64,000 bases of DNA from Naegleria gruberi (lineage: Eukaryota): the NCBI GenBank assembly GCA_000004985.1, contig GG738887.1, one strand, 5' to 3'. The notes under the pieces were generated by a model. The model did not search any database. It saw only the letters and a program-made list of their open reading frames with translations, and had not been told where the DNA came from. Shown in pieces: positions 7,310-31,682 of the stretch (position 1 is the stretch's first letter; each line of letters starts with the position of its first letter). The position numbers and the translations under genes were made by a program.

Positions 7310-8166
7310 TTCTTAATTCATTCATATTGGAAAATTCACCATTAGTGAATTTTATTGATGATCACTAAGATTTTTTTCCTTAATGATCGGAATGACGATA
7401 TTGCTGATAAAATAAATGATAAAGTGAAAGTTCCAGAACTCAAATTAAGTGGAAAATTTCCAATCACCATTACACAAGATGAGAACTTGAAGATTATGAT
7501 GAAGACAACAACAACTAGTGGTGAATGTTTCAACAATACACCTTACTGATAAGGAACCAACAACAATGGAAAAACAATTAGACACAACAATTAACAATTG
7601 AAGTAATTAGAGGCTTAACATTCTCATCCACTGAAAAATCAAATGAAACAATATCCAGTGCCACCAATTCACTTTGGAAAGGAAAAATCCAGGACAACAT
7701 TTGCACGATAAGAATGAGATAGCTCAATTTTTATTGATCTACTTGTTCAGTTAGCAAATCTGATAAAACTGCAACCTTATTCACAACGATATCAACCCCA
7801 AAATATGATAGATACTACTTGTTTATCGATTATGATTCTAATAAATTCTAGGACTGTAGATTGATACAACAACAGAAGAAACAAACAAATTAATCAACAA
7901 ATTAGGAAGATATTTGTAAAGTTTGGAAATCTAATTGGTTACTCCCTCCCACAATTTATCCGAAATGGTTAACTATCATAACCATCACTTAGCGTGATAA
8001 GGAAACAAAAGAAAATGTTCGACAATCATCGAGTCTTTTACCCACTCCAGAGCAGGCTCTTTCGAATCCTCTTCCTTCTCCTTCCACTTTTATTTTACTG
8101 TTCATGTGAAATTATGAAAATCACAAGTGAATTGACTAGATCAAATACTCAACAAATGATGAATAG

Positions 8167-25448: not shown

Positions 25449-25763
25449 TTTTCTTTTGTTGTATTTCTTAAAGAATTGTGTTACCTAGATTGGGTGGTGT
25501 TATTTTTTTTAATCTTATTTTAAAATTAGATTTTTTAGAACAATGGCTGAATACAATATATTAAGAAAATTGGCGGGAACAAGATGTTCCTTACATACAA
25601 ATTTGAAAGCCATTTCGGTAATTCTTCTACCGAGGTGCTTACAATAAAAAAGTTTTCAAAATTAGTAACTTGTGAAATTACTCCTTGCCACAGTAAACTT
25701 AGCAATCATTGTCAATTTAAAATATCAGTTGAAGCTTTTTTCAGTTTGTTTACAAAATCAAAA

Positions 25764-26942
25764 AAAATGTCTCAACAACTAATCTCGCTCCCAGCCAGTC
25801 AAACAAAATTCTCTTCCGATCTCTTTGGTGAATTGCTAACAACATTATCCGGTAACAATCTTGTATTTTCTCCCTTGTCTATTTTTATGGCTCTTTTAAT
25901 GACACTCGGAGGAGCTGATGGAGAAACGTTGACTGTGATGAAGAAGGCTCTTCATATTGCAATCAATAATACTGATATAAAGAGATGGAGAGAAAATACA
26001 ATGAAGGGATATGTGAAAGATACAATGTCTCTTGTCAAGAATAATCCTGATATGATTTCAATGGCTAATAGAATTTTCTTGGAACAATCGTCTATGATAT
26101 TGGAAGATTATAAGAGCTGGGTCGAAAATACTTTTGAAGTTTCTGTTCAATTGAGTAATTTTGTTGGAAATTCGAATGAAGAAAGGTTGAAAATCAATGA
26201 GTGGGTTGAAAAACAAACTAACAATCTGGTCAAAAACTTGTTGTCTAGTTCTAGTATTGATTCATCAACTGTGATTGTGTTGGTGAATTGTATATATTTC
26301 CTTGGAAAATGGAAAACCACTTTCAATGTGTCTGAAACTCTTTCAAATCAAGTTTTTAGAACAGTTAATGGAGACACTAATTCAGCAACATTAATGAATA
26401 TGCGAAATAAGCAAATATTATATGGAGAGAATTCACAAGTTAAATATGTTAATCTTCCTTATGAAAATCCTGGATATTCCATGTACTTTGTCATGTCCTC
26501 TGATGATGCTACCATTTCAGATAGCACGGAAAAAGAAACTGAGAAATGGCTGTCAGAACAATTGAAAAACAATTCCCTAAAACAAGTTCTTCCTACACTC
26601 GAGAAAAAACTCAATCATCTTACAATTCCAAAATTTGAAATTGAATATGACATCTCACTGAAAGATATCTTATCGAAACAACCATTTGATATGAGTGTTG
26701 CTTTTTCAGCACATTGTGATTTGAGTAACATGATTGGAAATTCTATTCAAATATCAGATGTAATTCACAAGTCAGTAATAAGAGTATCAGAGCAAGGAAC
26801 AGAAGCTGCAGCAGCCACTGCTGTTATTGGTACAAGGAAAAGCAAACCAAGAATTTACAACTTTGTGGCAGATAGACCATTTATTTTTGTGATAGCTCAC
26901 GAAGATACAATACTATTCATGGGAAAGGTCAATAAATTGTAA
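25764..26942 (+). CDS. Serpin (serine protease inhibitor), inhibitory type.
   Basis: N-terminal LVFSPLSIFMALLMTLGGADGET. The C-terminal hinge and reactive-centre loop is EQGTEAAAATAVIGTRKS followed by DRPFIFVI…GKV, which are diagnostic serpin motifs. The track ORF starts at 25584, but the Met at about 25764 (MSQQLISLPASQ) fits serpin length better. Confidence 0.85.
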   Translation, partial: KMSQQLISLPASQTKFSSDLFGELLTTLSGNNLVFSPLSIFMALLMTLGGADGETLTVMKKALHIAINNTDIKRWRENTMKGYVKDTMSLVKNNPDMISMANRIFLEQSSMILEDYKSWVENTFEVSVQLSNFVGNSNEERLKINEWVEKQTNNLVKNLLSSSSIDSSTVIVLVNCIYFLGKWKTTFNVSETLSNQVFRTVNGDTNSATLMNMRNKQILYGENSQVKYVNLPYENPGYSMYFVMSSDDATISDSTEKETEKWLSEQLKNNSLKQVLPTLEKKLNHLTIPKFEIEYDISLKDILSKQPFDMSVAFSAHCDLSNMIGNSIQISDVIHKSVIRVSEQGTEAAAATAVIGTRKSKPRIYNFVADRPFIFVIAHEDTILFMGKVNKL

Positions 26943-27052: not shown

Positions 27053-30000
27053 TTAATCAATTACAGTTCTTCTTTCAGCTGATCCAATTACAGTTTTTTG
27101 AACTGGCTTTGTAGTTGTGCTAACAGGAACATGAGTGGTTGATGTTGGAGTTGAGTGAAGAAGAGAGGATGAGCCACGGGAATATTCGCCTCCTTCTTGT
27201 GGCCAATCACCAATTTGTCCTTCAGTTGTTCCAGCAGTGTTAATTCCCATTCTACCAATAATTCCAGTCAACATTCCACCTTGCTCTCCTTGACCAGCCA
27301 TTACATTACCTTGAATGATAGTTTGTTCAATCAAGTCATTCAATCTTTCGATCAATTCTCTAATGTTGGTATTCAAGGCAGTTTCAAGATTGTCATGAAT
27401 CTTTCTTCTGACACGACTTTGAATGATTGGTGAAAGCATCTTGAGCATGAGTTTGTGCTTTTCAGCTTGCTTGAATTTGATATGGAGAGTGTCAACACCA
27501 ACTACAATTCCCTTAACATAGAATGGACGATTCTGACTTAATCTGGCCTTAAGCTTGAGTTTGATGTTAATACCACCTCTATCGAAATCAATATCCATTA
27601 AACCACGATCAGAAATTGATGGGAATGAACGACGATCGAATAAGAAACCAACATCCTTCAAGTGAGCAGTCATACCAAACAAGTGAGCTCCAATGAGGGT
27701 TGCACTTTCAGCCAATCTGTCAGTTGGTTTCAATTCTTCATATTTCATGGAGGTTCTATTCTTGACCTTGAATTTAACATCATCTGGGAGAATATCATTG
27801 GCCTTCAATGTAATATTGGAAATCTTAAAGTATTGACTTCCATCATCACCTTCAACCTCAATGGCATTCCAATTATTGATGGCTTCTTGAATGGCAACAA
27901 AGAGGATGGTTCTGATTTGTTCCAATGCAGATGGCTTCAATTGGAATTTACCTTGTTCATCAAGGAAGAGACGTGAAATTAACTTTTGACTTCTGTCACG
28001 AATTTCAGTATTCAATTCATCATTACGCATACTGGTTAATAATTCACGACCATAGGTAAGCATGTCATTAGTCAAGTCCATGTTCTTCTTCTCTTCAAGA
28101 ACAGTTCTACATTGCCACAATCTTTGTCTCAATTGTTCCTTTTCTTGATGAGATTCTAATAAAGTTGGTTGATTACCATATCTTCTGAAATCATTCATGA
28201 TATCTCTGAGAACTCCCTTCATTCTTTCATCAGTTCTCAAGTGAATAAAGAAAGCATTAGTAGTATCAAGCCACTTATCAAACATTTCCTTATTAGAGAA
28301 TTCATAAAGAATCAACTTGGCATAATTGAGTAAGCTCTTGAAATCATCATCTTCTCTCAATCTTTCAACTGTCTTGGTCTTTTCACCTCCTTGAGTGGCA
28401 GTATCACCAAACAAGCTCTTAACTTGATTAAACAAGTTGAACAATCCATAGAGAGCTCTTTGATAGTTTGGATCCTTGGAGAAACGTTTGTTCAATTGGA
28501 CATAACGATCAATGAGGGAATCTTCAATTTCTCTTCTGTTCTTATCATGGCTGACTGGTTCTTCTTGAGTGGATTGAGAACCAGAAATATTGGAAAGTCC
28601 AGATTTGATTGTAGGTTGTTGTTGACCAACCATTGATTGTTGAGGAACTTGTGGAATATTGGATTGGTATGGTTGACTAATTCCACTTTGGAAACCTTGT
28701 TGGGAGACATCAGATGGTTGCCATTGTTGTTGACCAAATTGTTGTTGTTCAGAAACTGGTCTAAATTGTTGAGCTTGGACATTGGATTGGAGAGATGGTT
28801 CTCTATATTGATCATCAACAATATTCTTATCAGAGAAATGACCAACTTGTCCAATTGACTGTTGGAAAGGAGCAATTCCTTGATGGGAGGTACCATAAAG
28901 TGAAGTTGGTTTCAACTCTTGACTAATACCAGAACTCAAAGGTTGTTGTTGACTGCTACCAATTCCAGAGTATCCAGAACTCAAAGGTTGTTGTTGAGAG
29001 AATTCTGGTTGTTGATAAGAAGGTTGACCAACCATTGATTGTTGAGGAATTTGTGGAATATTGGATTGTTGACCCATTCTTTGTTGACTAAGGTTTGGAT
29101 CAGTAACTCCAAATCCAGAATATTTTTCTTGAGATGGAACATTTCCAACACTTCCCATACCACTACCACTTGCGAAAGATGAGGAAGGTTGTTGCCATTG
29201 CTGACCTACCATTCCAGGTTGTTGACTAACCATTCCAGATTGACCAAATTGTTGACCATATTCTTGCTGTTGTTGCATTCTGGAGAATTCACCTGGTTCA
29301 CTAAGCTGTCCTTGATTTCTCTTCAATTCTTCTTCAGAGTGAACTTTTGAAGGGAGCAATGATTCTTCTTGCTTGTGTTGGAGATTGAGTGTTGCACCAC
29401 TGACAGAGGAAACTACTTCAGAGGTGGTTTCATGAACTGGTTCAGTCTTGCTACTCTCATCAGAAACACCCATTGATTTGATGCCACTTGCCAATTTGGA
29501 AATAATATTACCAGAGCCCTTCTCATCAATGTTGACTTCACCTGCAAGAATTTGCAAATATTGGAAGAATTCACCAATGGCCTCTCTGAAATCAGCACTT
29601 CTAATAAGTTGGAAGACAAAATCACGAAGACCAACAATGGATTGATAGACATCCCTGGTAGCTCCCTTCTGAGAAGTTTCGTATCCACCTTTTTTAAAAA
29701 ACATCATCCAACCATCTTGTTTTCAATGAACAAAATCATGAAAATACTTACGTTTCACACCATATCTGATATCTTCTCCAAATTCTGGAGCATACTTTTG
29801 AGAGAGATTTCTGAAACAAACGAGAAATTGTTGCATCTTCTCATCAGAGTTTCTATCTTCAATGATCAATCTGATCAGATCCAAGAGAATTAAGGTGTCT
29901 CTCTGGATTGTCTTACCTTCCCTTGTGAGGAGTGATTGACTGGAGAGAATGGATTGCTTGGCTTGTTCAATACCTACAAGAACAGCTTCATTGGATGGTG

Positions 30001-30163
30001 GAACTCCTTCACGAATTCCAGTTAATCCTTGGAATGCTGTTTCAGTTTGAGGATTTTGGAAGTGTACTTTGGTTTGACCAGGTAGAACAGGTTGAGTTTC
30101 AGTTGGAACGACACCTGGTTGACCAACAACGGTCGGTTGAGTAACTGGTTTATGTTCGACCAT
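27053..30163 (-). CDS. About 1030-aa protein with a conserved N-terminal region, a central Q/P/S-rich low-complexity region and a structured alpha-helical C-terminal domain. Two exons, with a 36-nt intron at 29716..29751. Function unknown.
   Basis: ORFs 29752..30163 and 27053..29715 join through a gtaagt…aacaag intron (…DIRYGVK|HGWMMFFKKGGYETSQ…). The centre has repeated SQQQPLSSG and NIPQ(I/V)PQQSMVGQ units. I recognise no domain. Confidence 0.5.
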
Positions 30164-30503: not shown

Positions 30504-31682
30504 TTAGAAATAATCTACATTGATTTGTTGTAATGCCTTTACGTTTTGACCAACATTGGTAACGTTACTATTCATGAAATGAGATTCATCCTTGATAGCA
30601 TCCAAACGTTGCTTTTTCAGTGTCTTTCTAGGTGCTGCATAAAAGGTGTTGTAAAATTTATCCAAATTTCTGTTCACTTCCAAAATTGCTGCAACATTTC
30701 CACATCTATTACAATAATTAGGAGCTGACCAAATGGTTGACAATTTATCGTCCCATAAAACCTGATATCCATCCATACATAATTGATGTGAACGAACAAT
30801 GTGACTAATCTTATTGGTAGCACAAAATTCATTGGCAAATTTCTTTGAATAGACAAATCCAATACCACGTAAATTTAATTTGAAATCTCCAACATTTCCA
30901 TCTCTTTTATCTTCATCATCTTGACTTGGATCAGACCATAAAAGATCTGAAATTGGTCCCTCAGATGGAACATCTTTAAATCTTTCAAGAACTCTGATTT
31001 GATCAAGTGTTGCAATAGAAGGACTCAATCCTCCATGAACACAGAAAATTGAATCATCAATTAATGCACAAATTGTCAAATAATCAAACATGTCAGTGAA
31101 ATATTTCCAAACATTGGCATTACCATATTTTAGAATACATTCTTGATAAAATCCGTAAACTTGTGTAATTGGTCTTGATTCGTGATTTCCTAAATTTTTG
31201 TTATATTTTTCATCATTAAATTCGAAAGTAAATATTCGAAACCAAGCAAATCACATCACGATCATCATGAAATATATTTAAAATAATATTATTAACCATC
31301 ACATCACCATTTAACAAAACAACAACAAATACCACTACTACTAACCTCTCAACAATGTAATCCTCTCCGGATACCTCAATTTATAACAAGTCAATAGAGA
31401 AATAGTTTCCACCGATTGTGTTCCTCTATTCACATAATCACCCAGGAATAAATAATTGGTATCTGGAATTTTACCTCCCACTCTAAACATTTCCTTCAGA
31501 TCCAAGAATTGTCCATGAATATTACCAACAACACTGACCGGAGATTTCACTCGTTGAACGTTGGCTTCATCGATGAGAATTTCCTTGACTTTTTCACAGA
31601 TGAATTTTACTTCAAATTCTGATAAAAGACGACCTGCTTCGAGCTTTTCGATACATCTATTAACGTCCACAACTGATGACAT
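30504..31682 (-). CDS. PPP-family Ser/Thr phosphatase catalytic-subunit paralogue (PP2A/PP4/PP6-like, closest to PP6/Sit4). Catalytic residues are substituted, so it is a candidate pseudophosphatase. Two exons, with the intron at 31190..31345.
   Basis: Exon 1 ends LLRG and exon 2 begins [32 protein letters not shown] after a 156-nt gttagt…tttag intron. The motifs are GNIHGQF (canonical GDIHG), GDYVNRG (canonical GDYVDRG), GNHE, CVHGG, LRGIG, RSHQL and SAPNYC. The protein ends …DYF* instead of …DYFL. Confidence 0.75.

Follow-up and report, generated by a model that had tools for sequence, protein, structure and literature searches.

A predicted PPG1-type pseudophosphatase of Naegleria gruberi with asparagine at two catalytic aspartate positions

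Introduction

Pseudophosphatases are well known among the tyrosine and dual-specificity phosphatases. Those of the PPP type form a recognized but very small class with few known members. PfPPP8 of Plasmodium falciparum was presented in 2023 as the first characterised PPP-type pseudophosphatase; its GDxxDRG motif reads GNLINRG, and the protein is a conserved, functional structural component (PMC10317984). For the human PPP-like family, a 2026 survey gives no reported pseudophosphatase. In the kinetoplastids, a second PP2B cluster and the kPPPs have been predicted computationally to be PPP pseudophosphatases (PMC2175518). These belong to other subfamilies on long branches, and none is of the PPG1 or PP2A type. 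Outside the PPP family, the retromer subunit Vps29 has a calcineurin-like fold with altered metal ligands and is kept for protein binding; it is a distant protein without a PP2A-type tail.

PPG1 is a branch of PP2A-like catalytic subunits that comprises yeast Ppg1, S. pombe Ppa3 and the pho2B-type proteins of Dictyostelium. The partners of yeast Ppg1 are the A scaffold (Tpd3), Tap42/Tip41 and a Far/STRIPAK-like complex (PMC10950219, PMC6506691).

Engineered mutants show what the loss of single catalytic residues does to such enzymes. PP2Ac D88N is 'catalytically inactive', demethylated and stably bound to PME-1, and removal of Leu309 leaves PP2Ac methylation-incompetent and unable to bind B-alpha (PMC9396060). 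The D88N subunit still folds and assembles into a holoenzyme, and the crystal structure 2IAE was made with it. In PP1, D64N (the Asp of GDxHG, in PP1-gamma) is an 'enzyme-dead' in vitro control (PMC8642546), and D95N (the Asp of DRG) has been used as a dominant negative (PMC6639021).

Here we describe a gene of Naegleria gruberi that carries substitutions of this kind naturally. It lies in a window of 64,000 nucleotides, the whole stretch of DNA that was analysed (contig GG738887.1).

Results

Gene structure and catalytic residues

Positions 30504..31682 of the window, on the minus strand, are the coding region of one two-exon gene. The coding sequence of 1023 nt specifies 340 amino acids and a TAA stop, and the product matches the N. 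gruberi hypothetical protein NAEGRDRAFT_80773 at 100% identity over 100% of the length in the NCBI protein comparison. The parts of the gene model are as follows.

31682..31346, minus strand: exon 1, codons 1-112 and the first base of Gly113, carrying GNIHG and GDYVNRG; from open reading frame and splice reading
31345..31190, minus strand: intron of 156 nt, GT..AG (GTTAGT...TTTAG), phase 1, splitting the Gly codon of GNHE
31189..30504, minus strand: exon 2, from the remainder of Gly113 to Phe340 and the TAA stop

The intron is AT-rich, with a GC content of about 24-25%, below that of the flanking exons. Its position and phase are matched by an intron of 204 nt in N. fowleri and one of 240 nt in N. 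lovaniensis; the Willaertia and Acrasis genes lack it. The 64-kb window holds no further PPP gene, and the comparison of gene order with N. fowleri and N. lovaniensis returned generic EGF-repeat matches only, with nothing usable. The search for evidence of expression gave none, a Logan contig with a 207-aa fragment being genomic.

The product has a single Metallophos domain (PF00149; 124 bits, E 1e-35), the Pfam signature of the calcineurin-like metallophosphoesterase fold. Its nearest solved structures are human PP2A catalytic subunits (370 bits and about 55% identity with HMMER), and the top match in the PDB, 2iae_C, is itself PP2Ac with the engineered D88N substitution. We used the HMMER alignment to human PP2Ac to map the catalytic residues.

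31523..31521, minus strand: Asn54 codon AAT, aligning with PP2A Asp57, the metal-1 ligand of GDxHG
31430..31428, minus strand: Asn85 codon AAT, aligning with PP2A Asp88, the Asp of DRG
31187..31179, minus strand: Asn114-His115-Glu116 of GNHE, intact, with the metal-2 ligand Asn and the general-acid His; Gly113 is split by the intron

The codons spell GNIHG for the first motif (31526..31512, minus strand) and GDYVNRG for the second (31442..31422, minus strand). A sequence-only reading of this locus had reported both motifs with their AAT codons, and codon reading agrees with it at these coordinates. The alignment likewise bears out its claim of two Asp-to-Asn changes at catalytic positions. In PPP enzymes, Asp57 is a ligand of metal 1, and Asp88 is the partner of the general-acid His118. 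Asp occupies the D57 position in 126 and the D88 position in 123 of 131 aligned PP2A-like sequences. The remaining eight of ten catalytic residues are kept: next to the GNHE residues (PP2A N117 and H118), which are invariant or almost so in both alignments of relatives, these are H56, D82, R86, H164, R220 and H247, equivalent to PP2A H59, D85, R89, H167, R214 and H241. The protein thus departs from the full signature of a competent PPP enzyme (GDxHG, GDxVDRG, GNHE and the complete set of metal and acid-base residues). It combines a phosphatase fold with substitution of residues required for catalysis (D57N and D88N), as expected of a pseudophosphatase.

Tail, acidic loop and predicted fold

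The protein differs from PP2A in two further regions.

30870..30926, minus strand: acidic insertion loop, residues 201-219, between LLWSDP and the phosphate-binding Arg220; from alignments
30507..30626, minus strand: C-terminal extension, residues 301-340, ending ...INVDYF, with the methyl-accepting Leu of DYFL absent
30506..30504, minus strand: TAA stop, directly after Phe340

The tail had been read as truncated and lacking the C-terminal Leu. The Leu is indeed absent, and the chain ends VDYF-stop instead of the DYFL of the PPG1 subfamily, but the tail is not truncated: at 340 aa against 309 aa for PP2A, it is about 30 residues longer. A stop immediately after the final Phe is also found in N. 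fowleri, N. lovaniensis and Willaertia. Alternative splicing that would restore DYFL was considered and rejected, as there is no donor site and the Phe-stop recurs in four species. N. gruberi and N. fowleri share the end of the tail, ...VGQNVKAxQQINVxYF, and are nearly identical in the last 16 residues; constraint on the tail is intermediate between that on the catalytic half and that on the acidic loop. The loop is restricted to Naegleria and Willaertia and evolves fast and near-neutrally (dN/dS about 0.9 between N. gruberi and Willaertia).

We modelled the protein with AlphaFold2 from an alignment of 68 sequences. Mean pLDDT is 87.8, with values above 90 in most of the core, 41-60 in the tail and 68-76 in the acidic loop, which lies at the active-site rim. 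PP2Ac is the best structural match (rmsd 1.3-1.4 Å over about 295 columns for PP2Ac chains). The PP2A-type fold of the N. gruberi protein is, as predicted by this model, intact.

Placement in the PPG1 branch

The protein is 62-69% identical to PPG1-type proteins, compared with 49-56% to PP2A, PP4 and PP6. Its PPG1-type relatives include fungal proteins named 'PPG1' or 'C22H10.04', the 'PP2A catalytic subunit B' of dictyostelids, Balamuthia and Fonticula, and proteins of the malawimonad Gefionella and of Pharyngomonas. In neighbour-joining (NJ) trees, the only kind built, every bootstrap replicate (100%) sets the PPG1 group apart from the PP2A/PP4/PP6 references, both with the catalytic columns and in a data set without them; the human PP4 and PP6 references used here were entered by hand. 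This PP4 reference clusters with a database sequence from lamprey, and the human PP2A reference, likewise entered by hand, agrees with the PDB alignment. Naegleria and Willaertia form a clade with 100% bootstrap support, and the same PPG1 group takes in Pharyngomonas, a basal heterolobosean whose PPG1 is canonical. The protein lies outside the group of PP2A proper (PPP2C, with its TPDYFL tail). From its position in the trees and its identities, we assign it as the Naegleria orthologue of PPG1, within the PPG1 branch of the PP2A-like phosphatases, rather than to the PP2A/PP6-like type proposed earlier.

The best 120 matches listed contain no second or canonical PPG1 of N. gruberi, N. fowleri, N. 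lovaniensis or Willaertia. A canonical copy would score well inside these 120, so each of the four species seems to have no PPG1-type gene besides this one, which had been called a paralogue. A separate N. gruberi gene, JGI 62709, is entered as PP2A in a published supplementary table, which also contains a PME-1 orthologue of N. fowleri.

Conservation and selection

The gene has orthologues in N. fowleri (P0121, 338 aa), N. lovaniensis, Willaertia magna (P0004) and Acrasis kona (P0011). GNIHG, GDYVNRG and the ...YF-stop are present in all three Naegleria species, each from an independent assembly. The codon at the Asn54 site is AAT in N. gruberi and N. lovaniensis and AAC in N. fowleri, while Willaertia (GAT) and Acrasis (GAC) encode Asp; at the Asn85 site, the three Naegleria species and Willaertia all have AAT, and Acrasis has GAC (Asp). 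Sequencing error at the AAT codons, which the sequence-only reading itself had considered and thought unlikely, is ruled out: both Asn residues recur in the assemblies of N. fowleri and N. lovaniensis, and the Asn54 codon varies synonymously. Willaertia keeps Asp57, carries D88N and H241N, and has the DYF end in common with Naegleria. Acrasis carries D85N and H241N and is sister, with 100% bootstrap support, to fully canonical environmental sequences. In Pharyngomonas and the metagenome relatives P0007 to P0009, the catalytic residues are canonical. The altered heterolobosean forms are about 15-25% farther from canonical outgroups than their canonical relatives are.

The gene is under strong purifying selection and has been retained under it. 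By the Nei-Gojobori method, dN/dS is 0.023 between N. fowleri and N. lovaniensis, which differ by 69 synonymous and 8 non-synonymous changes, 0.12 between N. gruberi and N. fowleri, with about 0.05 over residues 1-200, which contain most of the catalytic motifs, and about 0.13 between N. gruberi and Willaertia, where dS is saturated. Such constraint is in keeping with a pseudoenzyme that has a function and at odds with decay into a pseudogene. The annotated N. lovaniensis model has only 286 aa because of two 1-nt deletions in the assembly relative to N. fowleri. Since the adjoining gene on this contig also switches frame, and since the gene with its deletions repaired is as constrained as elsewhere, these deletions are probably assembly errors.

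Altered catalytic residues across the PPG1 clade

We surveyed the PPG1-clade sequences among the matches listed, taking one per 90% cluster. At least 28 of them, from several protist lineages, have altered catalytic residues, mostly to Asn, which accounts for 45 of the 51 replacements at D57, D85, D88 and H241 in this survey. The altered groups belong to Heterolobosea (Naegleria/Willaertia and, separately, Acrasis), Amoebozoa (Planoprotostelium, Filamoeba and many environmental sequences) and Metamonada (Anaeramoeba). Examples are H59Q, D85S, D88N and N117S in the genome of Planoprotostelium fungivorum, D85N and H241N in that of Anaeramoeba flamelloides, and D85N in a Filamoeba transcriptome. 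Those genomes apparently have no PPG1 gene other than the altered form, whose conservation comes close to that of active enzymes.

With the catalytic columns removed, Naegleria and Willaertia grouped with the amoebozoan-like altered set in 0 of 100 NJ bootstraps, which indicates more than one origin of the catalytic alteration. A terminal Leu is missing from 25 of 28 altered sequences, compared with 29 of 111 canonical ones, among the matches listed (Fisher p ~1e-9, phylogeny ignored). Some of the odd C-termini in the canonical group are gene-model artefacts. Loss of the Leu together with an altered site is expected if methylation matters only for an active enzyme.

Discussion

Among the described systems, the yeast Ppg1, Ppa3 and pho2B-type proteins are closest: they belong to the same branch (100% bootstrap) and have the same PP2A-like core. 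S. cerevisiae PPG1 even has a 10-residue insertion after LLWSDP and a C-terminal extension in places similar to those of the Naegleria protein (PMC6506691). In yeast Ppg1, however, GDxHG and GDxVDRG are canonical and the chain ends in DYFL, whereas Naegleria has Asn at D57 and D88 and no final Leu. The engineered PP2Ac D88N (also H59Q) and PP1 D64N/D95N forms provide the same substitutions at the same positions, but as laboratory single mutants, while Naegleria has two natural, fixed and selected changes together with the loss of the Leu. PfPPP8 resembles the Naegleria protein in its Asp-to-Asn replacement, although D85 and D88 are changed there and D57 and D88 here; it is also large, diverged and apicomplexan-specific with altered motif spacing, in contrast to a compact protein of PP2A/PPG1 type with 55-69% identity and normal spacing. 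The kinetoplastid predictions concern another lineage of Discoba.

Because the same substitutions yield dead enzymes in PP2A and PP1, inactivity is the best inference for the Naegleria protein. NAEGRDRAFT_80773 is probably a catalytically crippled pseudophosphatase that acts by binding rather than by turnover. The protein retains a complete PP2A-type fold in the model, the phosphate-binding arginines, the general-acid His and four of six metal ligands, with Asn in place of the metal-1 ligand Asp57 and of Asp88, the activator of the catalytic His, and with the methylatable Leu lost. These Asn and Leu-less states are fixed in the genus Naegleria, found in part in Willaertia and held by strong purifying selection; in the mechanism that we propose, they would leave a protein that binds without efficient hydrolysis. 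It may occupy PP2A-type partners, namely the A scaffold, Tap42/alpha4 and a STRIPAK/Far-like complex, or may alternatively hold phosphorylated ligands in a phosphate pocket that is still formed. By either route it would stand outside the methylation-dependent holoenzyme cycle, the tail going unmethylated if it behaves as PP2A does on deletion of L309. The identity of the partners, suggested by those of yeast Ppg1, is the weakest step of this proposal. That related lineages are hit at different catalytic residues suggests that catalysis, and not the fold, is dispensable in this lineage.

Several observations count against the pseudophosphatase reading, and they bear on an alternative that we regard as unlikely though well short of negligible, namely a working phosphoesterase with a re-tuned dinuclear site. 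The Asn residues would then serve as neutral ligands or hydrogen-bond partners and give an altered metal preference, pH optimum or substrate, which may not be a phosphoprotein. Constraint near the level of active enzymes is unusual for a dead active site, with dN/dS of about 0.05 in the catalytic half and only mildly accelerated divergence, and the protein still has eight of the ten catalytic residues; none of the 28 altered PPG1-clade sequences listed has a replacement at H118, H167 or R89. The near-uniform choice of isosteric Asn (88% of replacements) is non-random and may mean a site that was re-tuned and not abandoned, Asn being able to ligate metal as N117 does. Relatives without the second Asp of GDxVDRG offer precedents for activity: trypanosome ALPH1, an ApaH-like phosphatase, is reportedly the major mRNA decapping enzyme. 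The ApaH-like phosphatases have their GDxVDRG motif changed at this Asp (PMC2175518), and yeast Ppn2, which naturally lacks it, is catalytically active according to the 2026 survey. The catalytic-dead yeast Ppg1 H111N also phenocopies the deletion (PMC10950219); as this mutant is null-like, the known functions of yeast Ppg1 need catalysis. On the other hand, the same substitutions are dead or dominant-negative in PP2A and PP1, and two of them are combined here. Sister lineages have lost other ligands, the bridging Asp85 and His241, which is hard to fit to one conserved chemistry, and the methyl-accepting Leu has been lost as well, in keeping with how inactive PP2A mutants behave.

Two further explanations carry little weight. 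Descent as a recent degenerate paralogue of a housekeeping PP2A or PP6 catalytic subunit, the family named by the sequence-only reading, would accord with the 55% identity and 370 bits to human PP2Ac, with PP2Ac as the best structural match, and with another N. gruberi gene being tabulated as PP2A. We consider it very improbable, given that the protein groups with PPG1-types of fungi, Amoebozoa, malawimonads and heteroloboseans in 100% of NJ bootstraps, with the canonical Pharyngomonas PPG1 in the same group, that its identity is higher to PPG1-types (62-69%) than to PP2A/PP4/PP6 (49-56%), and that the best 120 matches listed hold no second PPG1-type protein from the same species. Still harder to credit is a pseudogene in decay, or an error made in sequencing or annotation, although the two 1-nt deletions and the 286-aa model of N. 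lovaniensis could be cited in favour. The reading frame is unbroken in N. gruberi, N. fowleri and Willaertia, and in Willaertia the coding sequence is identical on two separate contigs, L002 and L003; dN/dS is 0.02-0.12; the same Asn residues occur in three independent assemblies with a synonymous codon difference at Asn54; and the frame switch in the neighbouring N. lovaniensis gene makes assembly errors the most likely source of the deletions.

If the pseudophosphatase reading is extended to the altered PPG1 clade as a whole, PPG1 subunits may have been made Asn-substituted and Leu-less repeatedly and independently, in at least three groups, with an ancient role as a non-catalytic scaffold or one of unconventional chemistry and with coupling between the active site and the terminal Leu. 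We offer this as a tentative proposal, with a real but lesser chance of being correct. The coupling is mechanistically sensible, as inactive PP2A mutants are unmethylated, so that a subunit whose catalysis is gone does not need the Leu.

The protein is already public as an unnamed hypothetical. No mention of the locus tag NAEGRDRAFT_80773 was found in the literature searched, the paper on the PPP radiation contains nothing on PPG or Naegleria, and the prediction of a PPG1-type pseudophosphatase is new in that literature. N. gruberi is a tractable model, and the same gene is carried by its relative N. fowleri, a lethal pathogen. If the enzyme is dead, it would be a natural counterpart of the laboratory PP2A D88N mutant and could reveal non-catalytic roles of a PP2A-like subunit; it is also a natural test case for the link between the state of the active site and C-terminal methylation. 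The part most worth pursuing is the recurrent, Leu-coupled pattern across protists: if it holds, a PPG1 scaffold would be a candidate assembly subunit of STRIPAK/Far-like complexes, and active-site integrity and the C-terminal methyl-Leu would evolve as a coupled unit.

Genomic neighbourhood of the phosphatase gene

Four open reading frames (ORFs) of the window surround the PPG1-type phosphatase gene.

25584..26942, + strand: ORF of 452 aa encoding a full-length serpin (PF00079, 294 bits)
27053..29707, - strand: ORF matching the HAM1-like N-terminal domain (PF19343)
29723..30163, - strand: adjacent ORF, likewise matching PF19343
32323..40746, + strand: single ORF of 2807 aa

The two adjacent minus-strand ORFs are probably two exons of one gene, which lies directly downstream of the phosphatase gene and contains a long Gln-rich region. 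On the other side lies a giant receptor-kinase-like gene whose transcription runs divergently from that of the phosphatase gene. Its ORF encodes teneurin-like NHL repeats, many EGF-like repeats and a C-terminal protein-kinase domain. The kinase profile is covered only over its first 164 of 263 positions, and the gene must therefore extend past an intron after the ORF.

PPG1-type genes in related genomes

The following regions cover the gene in Naegleria lovaniensis, together with its neighbour, and the gene in Acrasis kona.

L001:6001-7151 and about 7499-7502: N. lovaniensis, contig PYSW02000027.1
L005:3001-3951 and L006:2007-2957: two A. kona contigs

The N. lovaniensis gene contains two 1-nt deletions and the neighbouring gene on the same contig shows a frame switch, which suggests indel errors in this assembly. 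XP_044547017.1, the protein annotated there, is 286 aa long and represents a truncated model. In Willaertia magna the gene has no introns and occurs on two contigs (L002, 170 kb; L003, 532 kb). Because the coding sequence is identical and the called neighbouring genes are the same on both, these contigs represent either haplotypes or a large duplication.

The A. kona protein has asparagine in place of both the bridging Asp85 (GNYVDRG) and His241 (RSNQ), and ends in DYFMM; the two contigs differ by 2 bases within the coding sequence. The environmental cluster P0009, to which it is most closely related, is fully canonical.

Altered PPG1-clade proteins in other protists

Replacements at catalytic positions, mostly by asparagine, are common to many PPG1-clade sequences of other protists, and nearly all of these altered sequences lack the terminal leucine. 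Planoprotostelium, Anaeramoeba and Filamoeba have contributed such proteins, as have many metagenomes or transcriptomes (homologues P0015, P0019, P0031, P0033, P0044, P0050, P0060, P0075, P0113, P0137-P0142, P0144-P0149, P0152, P0163 and P0164). The asparagine-replaced, leucine-less pattern in these protists is independent in origin of the Naegleria lineage.
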